This document shows, in pieces, positions 2,517 to 8,729 of a stretch of DNA of 8,729 nt; position 1 is the stretch's first letter, and each line of letters opens with the position of its first letter. Below the pieces are notes generated by a model that was given only the letters and a program-made list of their open reading frames with translations, ran no database searches and had not been told where the DNA came from. This stretch comes from a virus (lineage: Duplodnaviria; Heunggongvirae; Uroviricota; Caudoviricetes), in the IMG/VR virus record IMGVR_UViG_2645727555_000021. One strand, 5' to 3'. Made by a program: the position numbers and the translations under genes.

Positions 2517-2975
2517 ATGAGTCACGTTAACCCATCAAAAACACAATATCGCTTAATGCTGGCGATCGCGTCAGCTATACCAACCAGCCTGAATCCCCCG
2601 GCAGGCTATCCCGCTGTTGTTGATGATTGTTTTCAGTATTACGGAGAAGACATCCTGAGCCAGTCCAAAGCGCTCAAGCAGTTATGTAAGGCAGGTATTC
2701 TTCACTGTATCGGAGATCCGGACGATTTTGTTGTTATGCTGGCGGATCGTGACTCTTTTCTACTGTCCTGGAAAGCCGGTGCGCGCGAAGCACGTTTGGG
2801 GAATGGTATTGGTTACATAGACTATAGTGATTGTCCGCTGGCATTTGCTGGTGGATATATGCATTGGCATGAGCGAAATAGAGGCCGTCAGCGTCAGTAT
2901 CGCTTGAGTGACTTTAACGTCTGTCACGGTTTCGAAGAAGCTGACAGCCAGGACATCTGGCTTCAGGAGCCTTGA
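2517..2975 (+). CDS. Hypothetical 152-aa protein, function unknown
   Basis: ATG at 2517 preceded by AAGGGA 5 nt upstream. Soluble, with no transmembrane segment and no recognised motif; Cys/His-containing (CHG, HWHE). Its 3' end overlaps the convergent lipoprotein gene by 13 bp. Confidence 0.65.
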   Translation: MSHVNPSKTQYRLMLAIASAIPTSLNPPAGYPAVVDDCFQYYGEDILSQSKALKQLCKAGILHCIGDPDDFVVMLADRDSFLLSWKAGAREARLGNGIGYIDYSDCPLAFAGGYMHWHERNRGRQRQYRLSDFNVCHGFEEADSQDIWLQEP

Positions 2976-3295
2976 TCCCCCTTCCCTTCCCAAATCTCCC
3001 TGTTTCTTTGGTTATTCAGTGCGTTTCGTTGGTTGCATTCGTCGATCGTGCTGAATAACTGTTCAGCGTATGTCGGATACTTGTTTAACAGCACTGGCGT
3101 GTCCTCTGGCACTAAACAAGGGGAGTAATCAATCAGATTTGCCTGCGGCTTGCTGGTGGCTTCTACGGTAATTTTCACTGGCACGCTGGTTGATGGCTTT
3201 TGCCCGTTCCCGCTGCATCCTGATAACGTCATCAGGCACACGCACATCGTTAATCCCAGCACGGCGTAACGCATTTTCAAGGCGAGTGATTTCAT
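2963..3295 (-). CDS. Outer-membrane lipoprotein, o-spanin (Rz1)-like
   Basis: N-terminus MKSLALKMRYAVLGLTMCVCLMTLSGC is a lipoprotein signal peptide with lipobox LSGC; the mature part is Pro/Ser/Thr-rich with extra Cys. GAGAGGAAAG lies immediately upstream of the ATG at 3295. The gene starts inside the 3' end of the upstream Rz-like gene in a different frame (overlap 3129-3295), matching the overlapped spanin architecture known for P2 lysB/lysC. Confidence 0.5.
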   Translation of the reverse strand: MKSLALKMRYAVLGLTMCVCLMTLSGCSGNGQKPSTSVPVKITVEATSKPQANLIDYSPCLVPEDTPVLLNKYPTYAEQLFSTIDECNQRNALNNQRNREIWEGKGDQGS

Positions 3296-3587
3296 TCTGG
3301 CTTTCCTCTCGTTGTTTGATTAGGTTGGCATTCAGTTCTGCTGTTTTGCGCTGGTACTCCTTTTCCAGTGCTTTAATTCTTTCGTTTTCGGTCAGCATGG
3401 CTGAGCGAGCGTTCTCACTTAACTGTAATGCGGTAGAAAGCGTGTTGTTCGTGCTTTCCAGTTGTGATTTTGAGTCTTCAAGCGATCGGACATACCTGAT
3501 GTGTTCGATAACTGCCGTCGTTGTTCGGTAAATTCCAGAAATGGCTAAAAGCGCAATTACAATCAAAATTATCTTTTTCAAAACCAT
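3129..3587 (-). CDS. Bitopic inner-membrane coiled-coil protein, i-spanin (Rz)-like
   Basis: The ORF is open to 3602, but the ATG at 3585-3587 (MVLKKIILIVIALLAISG...) is directly preceded by GGAGAGG, whereas the ATG at 3602 has no SD. One N-terminal transmembrane helix, then a long charged coiled-coil-like region (EKEYQRKTAELNANLIKQREESQNEITRLENALRRAG). Its C-terminal region overlaps the lipoprotein gene. Confidence 0.55.
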   Translation of the reverse strand: MVLKKIILIVIALLAISGIYRTTTAVIEHIRYVRSLEDSKSQLESTNNTLSTALQLSENARSAMLTENERIKALEKEYQRKTAELNANLIKQREESQNEITRLENALRRAGINDVRVPDDVIRMQRERAKAINQRASENYRRSHQQAAGKSD

Positions 3588-3658
3588 CCTCTCCAGGTTC
3601 ATTTTTTGGTGTTAAACATGTACCAATTTACATCCTTTTGTGTGCCTAAGTGGTGCTT

Positions 3659-4465
3659 CTATGATTCCTTTTTGGTGTTCTTTTGGAGCGCATCGATAAC
3701 GCCTTGTGGCATGATTAAACTGATTGCCGGACTCATTACTGCATCATCCAGTAGAGAACCAGTTAACGTGATGGCGACAGCGTTCTCTAAACCTTTGGTT
3801 GCCTGAGTGGTTGACGTTTTAATGCGACCTGTAAGGGCTACGACACCCTCACTTGCTGAGTTAATTTCGGAGAGTAAAACTTCGGCGGCTGTCACTGCTT
3901 CCCGTAAAGCATCAATTTCATCCTGAGTAATGACTGGAGCCTGAGCGCCCCCAGCACCACCCTGTCCACCATTGCTTTCACCACCACCAGCACTTCCGGC
4001 AGCTTCAATTTTTGCGTTAATGGCGTTCATGGCGGTTTTCAGAGCATCAAGTTTTAGCGCCGTCAATGCGTCCGTTAGAGATTGCGGAATGGAAACATTC
4101 CCCATTCCCTCAACAAGGGCGAAAGCAGGTATGGGGGTCAGCTCGTTACCTTTTGCGTAGCATTCCCAGCCAATCTTCATCTGTAACAACTCTGATGGCT
4201 TGGTGTATGGGGAAAGAGAATCAGCCAGTAATGAAGACGCTTTGCTGGCCTCATTGAGCTGTTCAGAAAAGCCAAGCAATTGAGTAGTCCAGGCCGAAAC
4301 AGAATCAGGATAGGTTTTATCGGCGTGAACTATTCCCTGTATGGCGCTGGCGAGCGATGAGGCTTTTACAGAAGCTGCCCGGCTTATGGTTATAGATTCT
4401 GGTGTAGAGATACCGGCATCTGACAGAATTTTGAAGGCTTTAACTTCACCTATTGAATCAAGCAT
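3659..4465 (-). CDS. Hypothetical 268-aa Ala/Ser/Gly-rich soluble protein, translationally coupled to the PAAR-like gene
   Basis: The ORF extends upstream to 4564, but its in-frame ATG at 4463-4465 overlaps the PAAR stop (TAATG on the coding strand); the first 33 codons of the longer ORF are shadow of the PAAR gene. Contains a low-complexity linker AAGSAGGGESNGGQGGAGGAQAP between helical Ala-rich halves. No transmembrane segment and no catalytic motif seen. Confidence 0.65.
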   Translation of the reverse strand: MLDSIGEVKAFKILSDAGISTPESITISRAASVKASSLASAIQGIVHADKTYPDSVSAWTTQLLGFSEQLNEASKASSLLADSLSPYTKPSELLQMKIGWECYAKGNELTPIPAFALVEGMGNVSIPQSLTDALTALKLDALKTAMNAINAKIEAAGSAGGGESNGGQGGAGGAQAPVITQDEIDALREAVTAAEVLLSEINSASEGVVALTGRIKTSTTQATKGLENAVAITLTGSLLDDAVMSPAISLIMPQGVIDALQKNTKKES

Positions 4466-4749
4466 TATGCAACCTGAAAAATATCCTCGCCGTTGGCGAT
4501 AACAGAACCACAAGAAAGCGGATCGCCTACACAGACAACTCCCTTTCCACCTATCGAAAACCATACTCGCGTCGATACAGCTGCCCCTGGATGTGCACTG
4601 TTACCGTCAGTGTGACTGGGAAACATGGCACCATCTACAACAACTGGCTTACCGTTAACGGTGAACCAGGGAACGGTTTCTGCTACCAGTCGCGGCGGAA
4701 ATCCTCCGTGACCAGAACAAAGGGTGTCGCTGGTGGCTATTGCGCTCAT
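4465..4749 (-). CDS. PAAR-repeat-like protein (94 aa)
   Basis: ATG at 4747-4749 with AGGAGG 6 nt upstream. Translation shows three repeats of the PAAR type: LCSGHGG, WFTVNGKPVVVDGA and VWFSIGGKGVVCVGD. Size and repeat pattern match PAAR spike-tip proteins of T6SS and T4 gp5.4; assignment is by eye, not alignment. Confidence 0.6.
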   Translation of the reverse strand: MSAIATSDTLCSGHGGFPPRLVAETVPWFTVNGKPVVVDGAMFPSHTDGNSAHPGAAVSTRVWFSIGGKGVVCVGDPLSCGSVIANGEDIFQVA

Positions 4750-4834
4750 TCTTCACCTCCTGGTTATCCTCCTATTGTCATCACTTTGTTATTTCGTCAT
4801 TCAAACGGAGAGTTAAATTTCGGAATATTTTTGT

Positions 4835-4990
4835 ATTCTCAATTCATTCTCAAATAAATCTCACTATCAGACCATCATTCAGTGAGTGATTAAGATATTC
4901 TCAAAATAAACTCAACAAGCGCTCTTTTTTATCTCGTTTGGTGTGGATTTTTGGGTGCTTCTCTTTTAAAATTACATTTTAATTCTCAAA
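4835..4990. repeat. parC-like centromere/operator iterons upstream of parM
   Basis: Four exact copies of ATTCTCAA at 4835-4842, 4846-4853, 4897-4904 and 4982-4989. Degenerate copies sit 11 bp after the second and third (AAATCTCA at 4857, AAACTCAA at 4908), giving two phased runs of three with 11-bp spacing, as in R1 parC. The array lies in the divergent region between the PAAR-operon start and parM. Confidence 0.45.
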
Positions 4991-5015
4991 TGTGTCTCAG
5001 AAGTGGAGCAAGAAG

Positions 5016-5972
5016 ATGCGCATTTTTATCGATGATGGTTCAACCAATATCAAAATGCTGTGGGAGCACGACGGGGAAACTCGCACTCACATCAGCCCTA
5101 ACAGCTTTAAGCGCGGATGGTCAGCAACATTTGGTGCGGGCAAGCCGTTTAACTATGTCATTGACGACGAAAAGTATTCATACGACTTGATATCGCCAGA
5201 TGTTCTGCCGACGAATAATGTGGAATGGCAATACAGCCCGCTTAACGTCCTGGCTGTTCACCATGCCCTGCTGACAAGTGGCATTGAGCCGCAGGAAGTA
5301 GAAATTGTGGTCACGCTGCCTCTGGCGGAGTTTTACGACGACGACGCGCAATACAATCTCGATAACATCGAGCGCAAGAAAGCCAGTCTTATGCGCCCCG
5401 TCACGCTGAATAAAGGCAATGTGTTCACGATTAAGAAAGTTACGGTACGACCGGAGTCTATTCCGGCAGGAATTGGCCTGTGCGACAATCTGAACCCTGC
5501 CCATTCTGTTCTTATCGTCGATTTGGGTGGAACTACCCTTGATGTTTCAATGGTCGCCGGGCAAATGACGGCAGTTTCCCGTGTTTTTGGCGATTCGAAT
5601 CTTGGTGTATCACTGGTCACCAGGGAAGTAAGGCAAGCACTTGCAAGGGCCAATACCGAAACGTCAAATTACAATGTTGATCAGCTCATTATTAACCGCC
5701 ACGATGAAGATTATCTGAACGACAATATCAATGACCCATCAGCGATTGGTGATGTGAAAAAGGCCATTGCCGCAAGCATTGACCGTCTGCGTACCCGCGT
5801 TCTTGATGTGATTGGCGACTTTAAAGGATATACGCATGTCATGGTGATCGGTGGTGGCGCACCGCTGGTGGCAGATGCAATTCGCGAGCAAGTTAATATT
5901 CGTGATGACCGTTTCTTCGTGGCGGATGACCCGCAACTTGCTCTTGTTCATGGCCTGAAAGCAATCGGTTAA
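5016..5972 (+). CDS. parM: Type II partition actin-like ATPase ParM (StbA)
   Basis: The N-terminus MRIFIDDGSTNIKMLWEHDGETRTHISPNSFKRGW closely follows the R1 ParM N-terminus (MLVFIDDGSTNIK...HISPNSFKREW) as I recall it, and the motif NVLAVHHALLTSG is also shared. GGAG lies 7 nt before the ATG at 5016; the tracked ORF start at 4992 is a GTG extension without an SD. 318 aa. Confidence 0.9.
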   Translation: MRIFIDDGSTNIKMLWEHDGETRTHISPNSFKRGWSATFGAGKPFNYVIDDEKYSYDLISPDVLPTNNVEWQYSPLNVLAVHHALLTSGIEPQEVEIVVTLPLAEFYDDDAQYNLDNIERKKASLMRPVTLNKGNVFTIKKVTVRPESIPAGIGLCDNLNPAHSVLIVDLGGTTLDVSMVAGQMTAVSRVFGDSNLGVSLVTREVRQALARANTETSNYNVDQLIINRHDEDYLNDNINDPSAIGDVKKAIAASIDRLRTRVLDVIGDFKGYTHVMVIGGGAPLVADAIREQVNIRDDRFFVADDPQLALVHGLKAIG

Positions 5973-5979
5973 CGAGGTA

Positions 5980-6324
5980 ATGTCCATGTCTCAGGAACGT
6001 AAGAAAGTGATGATTTATCTTCGCCCAGAGGCTTATGCCAATGAAAAGGCGGCGAGCGAGAAGATAAAAAAACATAGCGATATGGCAAGAACCGCATTGT
6101 TGGCAGGGCTTGCGCTGGGAGAAGTCGATAGCAGGCTTCCAGGATTACTGGCTTCCCTGCTGACCGAAGACAATAACCCGGAGCTGATCCGAAAAATGCT
6201 GGCATCCTTCCTGGAACTACCAGCTGCGGTTGAGGAGCGCCCTGCCTCCATTGAGCCAGTGAAGGAGCAAGTTGTTGCCAAAAGCGCGTCGGCGCGCAAT
6301 CTGGCTGACTCTCTACCTGATTGA
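5980..6324 (+). CDS. parR: Type II partition adaptor ParR (StbB)-like DNA-binding protein
   Basis: It lies 8 nt after the parM stop, is of ParR size, and the segment ARTALLAGLALGE resembles RAALTAGLALY of R1 ParR from memory. The start may be the ATG at 5986 rather than 5980, because GAGG at 5974-5977 is better spaced for it. Confidence 0.75.
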   Translation: MSMSQERKKVMIYLRPEAYANEKAASEKIKKHSDMARTALLAGLALGEVDSRLPGLLASLLTEDNNPELIRKMLASFLELPAAVEERPASIEPVKEQVVAKSASARNLADSLPD

Positions 6325-6342
6325 CAGAAAATGTGCTGGTTT

Positions 6343-6367
6343 AAGGCTGCAAATTGCAGCCTTTTTT
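6343..6367 (+). terminator. Rho-independent terminator of the parMR operon
   Basis: Perfect 9-bp stem AAGGCTGCA (6343-6351) / TGCAGCCTT (6355-6363) with a 3-nt loop, running into a T-run that ends at 6367; it lies 19 nt after the parR stop. Confidence 0.7.
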
Positions 6368-6395
6368 ATGCCTTAATGGTGTCTAATTGGTGTTA

Positions 6396-6578
6396 ATCTG
6401 GAACCAGTTAGGTGCTGTTATGATGCAATTTTGTATCTGGTTCCAATTTGGGGCTGATTTCGTGTTAAATAGGATGCAATATAAGGTGTATTTGGTCTGA
6501 TTGATGTTATACTTTGCCAAACATTCATGACTCCATTATAGAGCCTGTCCCGCATCAAGAAGGCTCTTATCTGGAACC
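6396..6578. repeat. Repeated ATCTGG(A/T)(A/T)CC motifs upstream of parA; candidate partition site or operator
   Basis: ATCTGGAACC at 6396-6405 and 6569-6578, and ATCTGGTTCC at 6435-6444. Also ATGCAAT at 6423-6429 and 6474-6480, and AATGGTGT / AATTGGTGT at 6375-6390. The last copy sits in the leader between the putative promoter and the parA RBS. Confidence 0.4.
6505..6513 (+). promoter_or_regulatory. Putative extended -10 promoter for the parA operon
   Basis: TGtTATACT at 6505-6513 matches the extended -10 form TGnTATAAT. No good -35 is present. It lies about 100 nt upstream of the parA ATG. Prediction by eye only. Confidence 0.3.
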
Positions 6579-6611
6579 GTTTTGATACCAAAATCACACC
6601 GAGGAACGGAT

Positions 6612-7253
6612 ATGATTATATTGGTAGTCAGCCAAAAAGGTGGCTGTGGAAAATCAACCACAAGCGTAAACATCTGTGCGGAGCTTGCCCGCGCAAATAA
6701 GGATGTAGTGTTACTAGATGCAGACAAGCAAGGAACAGCTGCCCGCTGGGCAGCTGACCGTAACACGGCAGAGGTTTCTCCTGTTATTCATTGTGTCCAG
6801 AAGTTTGGTAATATTCGAGAAACACTTCTCGATCTGGATAAGCGTTATGAATTTGTTGTTGTTGATACAGCCGGGCGCGATAGCAAAGAGATGCGTACAG
6901 GCATAACCGCTGCAGATATTGTGTTGGTCCCATTCAGACCATCTCAACCAGATTTAGACACGCTGGCACACTTTGTTGAAGTGTTTGAAGAGGCTTTGGA
7001 CCTGATGCCTAATCCTAGCATTAAGGCGTTCGCAGTCTTAACAATGGCCCCATCCAATCCGGTTGTGAATGAAACCAATGAGGCCAAAGAGTACCTGGCT
7101 GAATATCCGCAACTGAAGTTGCTGAAAACCATCATTCGTGATCGTAAGGTTTACCGTGATTGCATGGCTGAAGGGAAGGGCGTTGTTGAGATGGACAACG
7201 GGAAAGCTAAAGGTGAAATCCAGATGTTGGTTAAGGAGTTATTAAGTGATTAA
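6612..7253 (+). CDS. parA: Type Ib partition ATPase, small ParA/ParF-like (213 aa)
   Basis: The N-terminus MIILVVSQKGGCGKSTT is the deviant Walker A (KGGxGKT/S) of ParA/MinD ATPases. The C-terminus (RKVYRDCMAEGKGVVEMDNGKAKGEIQMLVKELL) resembles ParF of TP228 from memory. GAGGAA lies 5 nt before the ATG at 6612; the tracked TTG start at 6582 is an unsupported extension. Confidence 0.85.
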   Translation: MIILVVSQKGGCGKSTTSVNICAELARANKDVVLLDADKQGTAARWAADRNTAEVSPVIHCVQKFGNIRETLLDLDKRYEFVVVDTAGRDSKEMRTGITAADIVLVPFRPSQPDLDTLAHFVEVFEEALDLMPNPSIKAFAVLTMAPSNPVVNETNEAKEYLAEYPQLKLLKTIIRDRKVYRDCMAEGKGVVEMDNGKAKGEIQMLVKELLSD

Positions 7254-7533
7254 GCCTCGTAAATCGGTAAAAGCCCCCGAAGTAAAAGACCCCGATCTTG
7301 AACGCCGAATTGAGGATTTTGCAAGTAAGGCTGATTTGGTGCCGGGTGAGCAACCAGAAGACAACAAAGTGCTCGATAAGGACGCTCCACGTGATTTTAA
7401 ATCTATTCGTGTTGGTTTCAATGAATACGAGTACCAGGTACTTGATGCGTTAAGTAAAAAGCATAATCGCAGCAAATTGAATATGATCCGCCATGCTATC
7501 CTCATGTTAGCGGAGTCTGAAGAAGCAAAATAA
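7246..7533 (+). CDS. ParG-like ribbon-helix-helix centromere-binding partner (95 aa)
   Basis: GTG start at 7246 with AAGGAG at 7233-7238, overlapping the parA stop by 8 nt. The C-terminus SIRVGFNEYEYQVLDALSKKHNRSKLNMIRHAILMLAE fits an RHH fold, and the N-terminus is charged and likely disordered, as in ParG. The only in-frame ATG is at codon 80. Confidence 0.6.
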   Translation: MIKPRKSVKAPEVKDPDLERRIEDFASKADLVPGEQPEDNKVLDKDAPRDFKSIRVGFNEYEYQVLDALSKKHNRSKLNMIRHAILMLAESEEAK

Positions 7534-7640: not shown

Positions 7641-7801
7641 ATTTTTCATTAATTTACTTATGCGCAAAAGTGGGCTTCATGAAAAAGCTCATTATTGAAA
7701 TAACGATAGAAAGCAATTTCTAATCAACTAGTGGTTGTCAGCCTATTCGGCTTATAAGATCATACGCTGTTATACGTTGTTTACGCTTTGAGGAATCCAC
7801 A

Positions 7802-8729
7802 ATGAGTGAGGCAGAAGCCCGCCCGACTAACTTTATTCGTCAGATCATCGATGAAGATCTGGCCAGTGGTAAGCACACCACAGTACATACCCGTTTCCCG
7901 CCGGAACCGAATGGCTATCTGCATATTGGTCATGCGAAATCTATCTGCCTGAACTTCGGGATCGCCCAGGACTATAAAGGCCAGTGCAACCTGCGTTTCG
8001 ACGACACTAACCCGGTAAAAGAAGATATCGAGTACGTCGAGTCGATTAAAAACGACGTTGAATGGTTAGGTTTTCACTGGTCTGGCAACATCCGTTACTC
8101 CTCCGATTATTTTGACAAACTCCATGCCTATGCTGTTGAACTGATCAACAAAGGACTGGCGTATGTTGACGAACTGACGCCGGAACAGATCCGCGAATAC
8201 CGCGGCACCCTGACGCAGCCGGGTAAAAACAGCCCGTACCGCGACCGCAGCGTTGAAGAGAACCTGGCGCTGTTCGAAAAAATGCGTGCCGGTGGTTTTG
8301 AAGAAGGTAAAGCCTGCCTGCGTGCGAAAATCGACATGGCTTCGCCGTTTATCGTGATGCGCGACCCGGTGCTGTACCGTATTAAGTTTGCTGAACACCA
8401 CCAGACTGGCAACAAGTGGTGCATCTACCCGATGTACGACTTCACCCACTGCATCAGCGATGCGCTGGAAGGTATTACGCACTCTCTGTGTACGCTTGAG
8501 TTCCAGGACAACCGTCGTCTGTATGACTGGGTACTGGACAACATCACCATTCCTGTTCATCCGCGCCAGTACGAATTCTCGCGCCTGAATCTGGAATACA
8601 CCGTGATGTCCAAGCGTAAGCTGAACCAGCTGGTAACCGACAAGCACGTTGAAGGCTGGGATGACCCGCGTATGCCGACCATTTCCGGTCTGCGTCGTCG
8701 TGGTTACACTGCTGCTTCTATTCGTGAGT
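7802..8729 (+). CDS. glnS: Glutaminyl-tRNA synthetase, N-terminal 309 codons (3' partial, continues beyond the window)
   Basis: The translation [53 protein letters not shown]... carries the class I HIGH motif (HIGH) and VMSKR (KMSK motif) and matches E. coli GlnRS from memory, with a few substitutions. GAGG lies about 8 nt before the ATG. The ORF track missed it because it runs off the window; the antisense ORFs 8066..8647 and 8128..8424 are shadows. Confidence 0.96.

Follow-up and report, generated by a model that had tools for sequence, protein, structure and literature searches.

In phage P1, the tip of the tail spike is a solved structure. The protein UpfC (PDB 9vyi) caps the trimeric spike, as was seen by cryo-EM (PMC12810830; also PMC9024508). 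Three trimers of a further protein, UpfB, are anchored at the spike tip as a 'tripod', an assignment for which an AlphaFold3 model was fitted into density of medium resolution (PMC12810830). P1 also harbors the predicted spanin genes ppfA and mlp, whose operon is not linked to lyz, lydA/B or lydC (PMC9025707). CRISPRi knock-down of upfC, upfB, ppfA and mlp caused no plating defect (PMC10695390). The T4 spanin genes pseT.3/pseT.2 are located away from t and e, and among catalogued spanins the combination of an i-spanin with 0 Cys and an o-spanin with two periplasmic Cys is the commonest (PMC6139136).

Here, we describe a related locus in a stretch of 8,729 nucleotides, termed the window. The whole window shares 99.0% identity with phage D6 and 99.9% with the E. 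coli plasmid CP058021, and by these values it is a D6-like, P1-family phage-plasmid. A block on its minus strand (2963-4749) leads from a PAAR gene via a gene for a 268-aa protein and an Rz-like gene to an overlapping lipoprotein gene. All four co-oriented ORFs were found exactly in the order and with the limits given in the initial annotation. The features are as follows:

4465..4749, minus strand: upfC orthologue, PAAR-type tail spike-tip protein, 94 aa (PF05488, phrog_281, PDB 9vyi)
3659..4465, minus strand: upfB orthologue, all-helical protein of 268 aa, counterpart of the P1 'tripod' protein (phrog_1559, BLASTP to P1 UpfB)
3129..3602, minus strand: predicted i-spanin, counterpart of P1 ppfA, type II inner-membrane protein, 157 aa (PHROG profiles, topology)
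2963..3295, minus strand: predicted o-spanin, counterpart of P1 mlp, outer-membrane lipoprotein precursor, 110 aa (lipobox, PHROG profiles)
4750..4991, no strand assigned: divergent intergenic region between upfC and stbA/parM, with the presumed operon promoter and TTCTCAAAT-type repeats

The upfC stop codon and the upfB ATG share one base (TAATG), a gap of 56 nt separates upfB from the i-spanin gene, and the two spanin genes overlap by 167 nt in different frames. Downstream lie two convergent genes (orf52 and orf53) with no assigned function. Judged by similarity and gene order, the four genes are syntenic orthologues of P1 upfC-upfB-ppfA-mlp. We consider it very probable that the region is the D6-lineage version of this P1 module, which holds spike-tip parts together with a spanin while the other lysis genes are located elsewhere. 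One gene block combining two unrelated late functions, virion parts and a spanin, is the best explanation of the locus.

We read the first gene product as a PAAR-type spike-tip protein. The protein matches PF05488 (27.2 bits, cut-off 27) and phrog_281 (8e-29) and, among PDB entries, 9vyi 'UpfC' (1.4e-35) and T4 gp5.4 (1.4e-5). It is 57% identical to P1 UpfC, and Cys11, His14, His46, His53, Cys73 and Cys80 are all kept between the two proteins. A ribosome-binding site (AGGAGGT) precedes the start codon, and in the D6 record orf57 is already annotated as 'similar to P1 gene upfC'. By analogy with P1, from which the virion location is taken, UpfC would cap the gp5 tail spike as its PAAR-type tip. 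The 268-aa protein matches phrog_1559 (3e-110) and aligns with P1 UpfB in BLASTP over 263/268 residues (3e-22, 26% identity). It gave no sequence match in Pfam, NCBIfam, PADLOC or PDB. An AlphaFold2 monomer model (pLDDT 86) consists entirely of helices with a disordered Gly-rich linker at residues 160-173. Foldseek found nothing significant for this model in the PDB (best E 0.039, TM 0.16, helical bundles), and the best structural matches in BFVD are DUF7217 proteins, not lysins. A structure search for a muralytic fold had been proposed earlier, and such a fold is ruled out here by Pfam, NCBIfam, PDB, the AlphaFold2 model and Foldseek against both PDB and BFVD. Transmembrane segments were found neither in the PAAR protein (hydropathy maximum 1.16) nor in the 268-aa protein (1.39), so that the genes upstream of the pair indeed lack transmembrane helices and muralytic motifs as judged by hydropathy, Pfam and Foldseek. 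Again with the virion location taken from P1, UpfB would be the helical 'tripod' protein attached at the spike tip. An apparent mention of 'upfB' in a paper on phage S144 turned out to be a false string match to the phage name UPF_BP2.

In the third protein, residues 6-24 near the N-terminus form the only hydrophobic segment (Kyte-Doolittle mean 2.48); a Lys-Lys pair (Lys9-Lys10) is given as preceding this segment. It contains 0 Cys and 31% charged residues, and alternative starts at 3587 or 3581 would shorten it to 152 or 150 aa. In the AlphaFold2 model (pLDDT 87) a helix (2-114) is followed by a linker (115-123) and a second helix (124-153), while coiled-coil propensity was estimated by a crude heptad count. 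The protein matches phrog_214 (1e-15), phrog_89 (the P2 LysB family, 1.9e-7) and phrog_2466 (2.5e-4), all of which carry the name 'Rz-like spanin'. Similarity to individual proteins is low: BLASTP to P1 PpfA gave about 21% identity (E 0.086) with a common C-terminal motif R-x-P-x-D-x-x-R, and the hhalign alignment with P2 LysB is marginal and covers a motif of 10 residues. Because these pairwise matches are so weak and short, the assignment as i-spanin rests on the PHROG profiles, the topology and synteny. Topology, helical model and PHROG matches agree with the earlier description of this gene product as an Rz-like inner-membrane coiled-coil protein. A word-based protein search retrieved P1/D6-type contigs only.

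The o-spanin candidate has a lipobox (LSGC) with the lipidated residue predicted at Cys27 and Ser, not Asp, at +2, and the mature part also contains Cys60 and Cys87. The topology and lipoprotein-signal check that had been suggested for both membrane proteins thus gave an N-terminal segment in the Rz-like protein and a lipobox in the lipoprotein. Profile matches are to phrog_456 (the P2 LysC family, 'Rz-like spanin', 1.2e-5) and to phrog_30284 (the P1 Mlp family, 6.7e-4), while the match to Pfam O_Spanin_T7 stays below threshold (16.3 vs a cut-off of 25 bits). All three Cys are aligned with those of P2 LysC in hhalign (E 8e-6, probability 84%). Identity to P1 Mlp is 31% (1e-8), and both proteins have 110 aa. 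A conserved ribosome-binding site, GAGGAAAGCC, is located upstream of the gene. The ORF is kept in P1 and in three further relatives, and the five homologues share 15 invariant columns including the lipobox. Judged by this conservation the out-of-frame lipoprotein ORF is no chance ORF, and the overlapping outer-membrane lipoprotein that had been proposed is confirmed by the lipobox, the overlap and the conservation.

Measured against the criteria for two-component spanins, as set out for Rz/Rz1 equivalents (Summer 2007, Kongari 2018), the pair shows the i-spanin topology, a helical periplasmic domain, a lipobox, the gene arrangement, periplasmic Cys and the profile matches. The cysteine pattern, 0 in the i-spanin and two periplasmic residues in the o-spanin, predicts that cysteines are available for homotypic disulfides. 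In the comparisons made here the pair comes closest to overlapped spanins of the P2 LysB/LysC type, and the best explanation is an ordinary overlapped, P2 LysB/LysC-like two-component spanin, with the activity as a prediction. The N-terminal helix of the i-spanin would anchor it in the inner membrane, from where its two helices would extend into the periplasm. The o-spanin would carry a lipid at Cys27 and be taken to the outer membrane, and both subunits are expected to bind each other across the periplasm. The holin LydA, regulated by LydB, and a peptidoglycan hydrolase, both encoded elsewhere on the replicon, would remove the cell wall first. After cell-wall loss the spanin complex would then disrupt or fuse the outer membrane, leading to release of the progeny.

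The initial annotation was right that no holin or endolysin is recognisable near the pair, as judged by Pfam and PHROG searches with the 10 larger ORFs. The classical holin-endolysin-spanin order is absent, with upfC and upfB directly upstream of the pair. On the closest complete replicons these lysis genes can be found elsewhere. D6 encodes the holin LydA (phrog_1527, 8e-39) at 31.2 kb, the antiholin LydB (PF16084, 1e-24) at 30.7 kb and a CHAP-type peptidoglycan hydrolase (PF05257, 2.7e-7) at 19.3 kb, and its spike-tip/spanin operon lies 24-36 kb away from them at 55.1-56.9 kb. CP058021 carries the same holin, antiholin and hydrolase genes, and over D6 and CP058021 the distances range from 11 to 36 kb. 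The initial annotation took it that a holin and an endolysin normally precede spanins, which does not apply to this phage family, as documented for P1 (PMC9025707), or to T4 (PMC6139136); adjacency to these genes is no defining feature of spanins. The pair lacks a neighboring holin and endolysin because the lysis genes are scattered, as is typical of P1-like phages, and with this simpler explanation the anomaly disappears. In phages whose lysis genes are dispersed, a new function is only weakly argued for by the absence of a neighboring holin or endolysin. The initial annotation therefore holds in its gene-by-gene reading, while its conclusion from the absent lysis genes is not supported, given their presence on the closest complete replicons.

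The initial annotation had offered two readings of the pair, a remnant of a lysis cassette or co-option for exclusion or delivery. That the pair is a decaying, non-functional leftover of a former holin-endolysin-spanin cassette would fit with the missing neighbors, with the P1 orthologues being dispensable for plating (PMC10695390) and with the metagenomic relative L005, in which a single in-frame stop at codon 98 breaks the i-spanin frame. However, the o-spanin is intact even in L005, and both spanin frames, the export signals, the ribosome-binding site and the overlap are kept in the window, in P1 and in the relatives L006 and L007. The 90%-identity cluster of the i-spanin comprises 445 member sequences, with an intact frame in the representatives listed. 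Furthermore, replicons of this type (D6, CP058021) encode holin, antiholin and hydrolase at other loci, and P1 normally has its spanin genes unlinked in the same way (PMC9025707). Decay of a module whose frames, export signals and overlap are conserved across five lineages, the stop in L005 aside, is extremely improbable. The absent plating defect in P1 fits with spanins and spike tips that are dispensable in the laboratory, and it gives no positive support for a function. In the other reading, the pair would have been co-opted for a different task at the envelope that is tied to the spike tip; it might exclude superinfecting phages with P1-like spikes or assist DNA delivery, for example, and this tie would be the reason for its place beside upfC and upfB. 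In five lineages with differing flanks the four genes have stayed together (in the three more distant relatives L005, L006 and L007, UpfB is 38-49% identical and the flanking genes are different), and the spanin role of P1 ppfA/mlp is itself a prediction (PMC9025707). Synteny inherited as part of a late gene block accounts for this linkage equally well, and P2 also has its spanin genes among tail genes. Exclusion would require expression in the lysogen, and the spanin-defining features accessible to sequence and model analysis are all present. The NCBIfam search with both membrane proteins gave nothing above the threshold of E 0.01, and in PADLOC the pair matched only an RmuC-type model, weakly (4e-4) and through coiled coil. 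These searches rule out a known exclusion or defense pair, and as far as it is testable in this way co-option is very unlikely. Neither a muralytic fold nor a known exclusion family, the two observations that the initial annotation had named as speaking against it, was found. It is also highly improbable that the persistent linkage of spanin, spike tip and tripod across the P1/D6 group reflects a functional tie instead of inherited synteny. Such a tie could mean, for example, that the pair acts in the lysogen or late in infection against incoming P1-type spikes, as a periplasmic form of superinfection exclusion, or that UpfB works with the spanins at the envelope.

A further alternative concerns transcription. 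It is the gene spacing that suggests a single transcription unit for the four genes, and we infer late timing of this operon. The promoter is presumably located at 4750..4991. Four TTCTCAAAT-type direct repeats are found at 4832-4999, and the minus strand carries one sigma-70-like site (4853..4824, TTGAGA-18-AATATT), a number within chance expectation. A generic scan for sigma-70 promoters and terminators gave counts at or below chance. The P1-type Lpa late-promoter motif AAGTGACTT-N4-TANNNT, taken from the annotated P1 LP23, had no match at up to 2 mismatches, and the late-promoter 9-mer on its own gave chance-level matches, none of them upstream of upfC or the capsid gene. Two RNA-seq papers on P1 make no mention of upfC, upfB, ppfA or mlp. 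The gene functions could be as in the preferred reading, with upfC-upfB forming one unit and a separately promoted spanin pair the other. The P1 annotation places two predicted sigma-70 promoters, P1ppfA and P2ppfA, inside upfB, from which it follows that the spanin genes may be transcribed apart from upfC/upfB. In addition, upfC and upfB overlap, but upfB and the i-spanin gene are 56 nt apart. However, the gap between the latter two is only 2 nt in L005 and L006, and neither a terminator-like site between upfB and the i-spanin gene nor a promoter-like site in or just upstream of the gap was seen, the total count being below chance. The one promoter-like site nearby (3595..3568) falls within the i-spanin coding sequence. 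We regard two units as rather unlikely.

The arrangement of a spike-tip module with a spanin pair is already known from P1 and is ordinary for this phage family. Its biological weight is small, because the apparent anomaly is the normal layout of P1-family phage-plasmids. Only annotation points are new: orf54 and orf55 of D6 are unrecognised, predicted spanins. In the D6 records both orf55 (the i-spanin) and orf54 (the o-spanin) are labelled 'hypothetical', and the start of orf54 is set 37 codons too late, so that the lipoprotein signal is lost. In the gene table of CP058021 the PAAR gene is labelled 'alanine racemase' and the o-spanin is unlisted. Hundreds of plasmid records from E. coli, Shigella and Salmonella match the window, and hence these annotation errors are probably widely propagated.

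Comparison with known spanins places the locus closest to P1. The P1 order upfC-upfB-ppfA-mlp(-upfA) resembles that of the window in gene order and strand logic, in the overlapping or adjacent upfC stop and upfB start, in the 167-nt overlap of ppfA and mlp and in the o-spanin length of 110 aa. Both P1 and the window/D6 are P1-family phage-plasmids with lydA/lydB elsewhere on the replicon. However, the spanin pair itself is highly diverged (Mlp 31%, PpfA about 21%), and in P1 Mlp a single one of the o-spanin's two periplasmic Cys is present. P1 has upfA downstream, while the window is without an upfA homologue and has orf52 and orf53 there instead. The upstream neighbor is stbA/parM in the window and uhr/hrdC/dmt in P1, and the place of the P1 SAR endolysin Lyz is taken in D6 by a CHAP-type hydrolase. 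Among 50,697 phage records, a tblastn search with the two spanin subunits matched only D6, and homologues in classical cassettes are therefore not locatable by that route. P2 LysB/LysC share the overlapped architecture, and lysB/lysC sit between the tail genes X and R/S just as the pair of the window lies beside genes for tail parts. In P2, however, holin Y and endolysin K are encoded immediately upstream of the spanin genes, unlike in the window. T4 PseT.3/PseT.2 have the same cysteine pattern, 0 in the i-spanin and two in the o-spanin (PMC6139136), but a separated instead of an overlapped architecture, and no sequence relationship to the pair was detected. Lambda Rz/Rz1 share with the pair the two-component logic and topology, the two periplasmic i-spanin helices joined by a linker and weak matches to phrog_2466 and phrog_214. 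In contrast to the pair of the window, lambda Rz/Rz1 are embedded, lie within the holin-endolysin cassette, contain Cys in both subunits and have an o-spanin that is far shorter (60 aa).

At 99.0% identity, the window corresponds to positions 52212-60852 of Escherichia phage D6 (MF356679), a P1-like phage-plasmid; its identity to the E. coli plasmid pRHB04-C06_3 (CP058021) is 99.9%. Matches to some part of it occur in 445 plasmid records, of which 104 span 80% of the window or more. Direct reading of the sequence confirmed the four minus-strand open reading frames between 2963 and 4749 that the initial annotation had described, with the following layout:

4749..4465, minus strand: PAAR gene (upfC-like), 94 aa, with a strong ribosome-binding site (AGGAGGT) upstream
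4465..3659, minus strand: gene of the 268-aa protein (upfB-like), its ATG sharing one base with the TAA stop of the PAAR gene (TAATG)
3602..3129, minus strand: Rz-like gene (i-spanin), 157 aa, separated from the 268-aa gene by a 56-nt gap
3295..2963, minus strand: lipoprotein gene (o-spanin), 110 aa, sharing 167 nt with the Rz-like gene in a different frame

Two alternative in-frame starts of the Rz-like gene, at 3587 (152 aa) and 3581 (150 aa), are each used in public annotations. The spacing of the genes suggests that all four may be co-transcribed, with late timing. A promoter search for the operon identified none, and the late-promoter motif of P1, as derived from the annotated promoter LP23, is absent. 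Since no promoter was found and the P1 annotation predicts promoters inside upfB, the spanin genes could be transcribed separately from upfC-upfB, which we consider unlikely.

In the D6 record the operon is flanked on one side by the major capsid protein gene and on the other by a StbA/StbB partition pair, a ParA-like ATPase and a phage-borne glnS. In the window two partition systems adjoin in the region of 4992-7533 and 7800-8729, StbA/ParM with StbB and then the short ParA-like ATPase, which is followed by a 95-aa ORF. The glutaminyl-tRNA synthetase gene is incomplete, being cut by the window end, and these genes are annotated alike in D6. Between upfC and stbA/parM a TTCTCAAAT-type repeat occurs four times (4832-4999; start spacings 11, 51 and 85 nt); its copies are probably parC-like sites to which the partition adaptor StbB/ParR binds. 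Two of the copies overlap with a minus-strand sigma-70-like site (4853..4824). Bases 1-86 of the window match neither D6 nor CP058021, while the remainder is 99-99.9% identical; the divergence starts about six codons into the orf49 homologue (minus strand, Ig-like domain protein) and suggests a variant or recombinant allele.

The first two genes encode probable spike-tip proteins. That P1 UpfC forms a PAAR-type tip on the gp5 spike was first predicted by HHpred (PMC9024508), and its structure is now solved by cryo-EM (PDB 9vyi). The window protein matches this structure (1.4e-35) and T4 gp5.4 (1.4e-5), and is 57% identical to P1 UpfC with all three cysteines and three histidines kept. The 268-aa protein is 26% identical to P1 UpfB over its full length (E 3e-22). 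UpfB has been described as a 'tripod' of three trimers fixed at the distal spike tip, from an AlphaFold3 model placed in medium-resolution density (PMC12810830). A model of the window protein built from a 26-sequence alignment (pLDDT 86) contains helices only, apart from a disordered, Gly-rich linker (160-173). In BFVD its top hits are DUF7217 proteins from other phages (TM 0.4-0.6, E ~1e-3), with neighbours in Pectobacterium phage Wc4, Serratia phage vB_SmaA_3M and Escherichia phage FEC14; over these three, probability is 0.66-1.0, TM 0.26-0.58 and E ~1e-3 to 0.2. These matches hint that tripod-like spike-tip proteins may occur outside the P1 group.

The membrane pair shows all testable defining features of spanins. 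Hydropathy calculation places a single N-terminal membrane segment of the Rz-like protein at residues 6-24, after Lys-Lys, and the protein has 31% charged residues and no cysteine. In its model (pLDDT 87) a short linker joins a long helix (2-114) to a further helix (124-153). The lipoprotein carries the lipobox LSGC with Cys27, followed by Ser at +2, a signal for outer-membrane sorting (motif calculation), and further cysteines at 60 and 87. Topology and lipoprotein signal, which the initial annotation had proposed to examine, therefore fit an i-spanin and an o-spanin of overlapped architecture. By profile the i-spanin matches phrog_214 (1e-15) and phrog_89 (1.9e-7), the o-spanin phrog_456 (1.2e-5) and the P1 Mlp family phrog_30284 (6.7e-4); P2 LysB falls in phrog_89 and P2 LysC in phrog_456. 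In an alignment of five o-spanin sequences with P2 LysC (hhalign E 8e-6) the lipid cysteine and both periplasmic cysteines align. By these profile searches, the pair is nearest to the P2 type.

Other identities had been considered for these genes. A muralytic fold in the 268-aa protein would make the operon a conventional lysis cassette, but neither sequence nor structure search found one: the protein has no match in Pfam, NCBIfam, PADLOC or PDB sequences, and Foldseek of the all-helical model against the PDB gave nothing significant (best E 0.039, TM 0.16, generic helical bundles), so a lysin is rejected. A known exclusion pair is likewise rejected as the identity of the membrane proteins, which have no exclusion or defence match in NCBIfam or PADLOC. 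The suggestion of a decaying lysis-cassette remnant is opposed by conservation. The order PAAR, UpfB, membrane-anchored helical protein, lipoprotein is kept in three relatives at a greater distance, whose UpfB shares 38-49% identity with the window protein: the JGI metagenome contig Ga0557493_045740, a Citrobacter freundii contig and a Logan assembly. Each of their lipoproteins carries the LSGC lipobox as well as the two Cys motifs, while the flanking genes vary. In the metagenome contig (4768-5400) the i-spanin frame is interrupted once, by a stop at codon 98 that is a nonsense mutation or else a sequencing error, and goes on past it into the conserved C-terminal part, RVPDTVIRMQRER; the o-spanin is intact.

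A Pfam and PHROGs scan confirmed that the larger ORFs of the window include no holin or endolysin, and hydropathy shows no membrane segment in either the PAAR or the 268-aa protein, as had been noted. D6 has a LydA-type holin (phrog_1527, 8e-39) and a LydB antiholin (PF16084, 1e-24) at 30.7-31.5 kb and a CHAP-domain peptidoglycan hydrolase (PF05257, 2.7e-7) at 19.3 kb, far from the operon at 55.1-56.9 kb; the lysis genes of the D6-type replicon are thus dispersed. These three genes are also present in the closest record, CP058021, under the names 'holin', 'lysis protein' and 'TIGR02594 family protein'. Hence the initial reading of the four genes stands, while the apparent anomaly of the missing lysis genes disappears. 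Following established spanin biology, UpfC and UpfB would be produced for the tail tip upon induction, the i-spanin would enter the inner membrane and the lipidated o-spanin the outer membrane, and both would bind across the periplasm. Once LydA and the hydrolase had destroyed the wall, the pair would disrupt the outer membrane.

P1 is already known to have this operon arrangement, and the window is near-identical to a published phage; what remains is a contribution at the level of annotation. The D6 record names orf57 'similar to P1 gene upfC' and orf56 'similar to P1 gene upfB', while orf55 and orf54 (MF356679, 55088-55706) are 'hypothetical'. Moreover, orf54 is annotated from Val38, whereby the lipoprotein signal is lost. 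The CP058021 gene table (7741-9361) calls the PAAR gene 'alanine racemase' and lacks the o-spanin gene.

P1 carries upfC, upfB, ppfA, mlp and upfA in this order on one strand, and its ppfA/mlp overlap is 167 nt, identical to that in the window. The place of upfA, repA and par is taken here by orf52 (130 aa, phrog_7830) and orf53 (152 aa, phrog_8101), two plus-strand genes at 2108-2975 convergent with the operon; orf53 and the o-spanin gene share 13 nt at their 3' ends. The lipoprotein is 31% identical to P1 Mlp, also 110 aa (E 1e-8), and the Rz-like protein about 21% to PpfA by BLASTP (E 0.086; hhalign E 8e-4), with a common C-terminal motif R-x-P-x-D-x-x-R. ppfA and mlp are predicted spanin genes, named o-spanin and i-spanin, respectively (PMC9025707), whereas sequence comparison places the lipobox LSGC in Mlp and the N-terminal membrane helix in PpfA, the reverse of these labels. 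CRISPRi knock-down of each of the four P1 genes left plating normal (PMC10695390). The lysis genes of P1 are likewise dispersed, its spanin operon being unlinked to lyz, lydA/B and lydC (PMC9025707), and T4 too keeps its spanin genes apart from t and e. The window pair shares with T4 the cysteine pattern of none in the i-spanin and two in the o-spanin, the commonest combination according to Kongari et al. In P2 the lysis genes, lysB/lysC included, sit between the tail genes X and R/S, and spanin genes beside tail genes are therefore not new.
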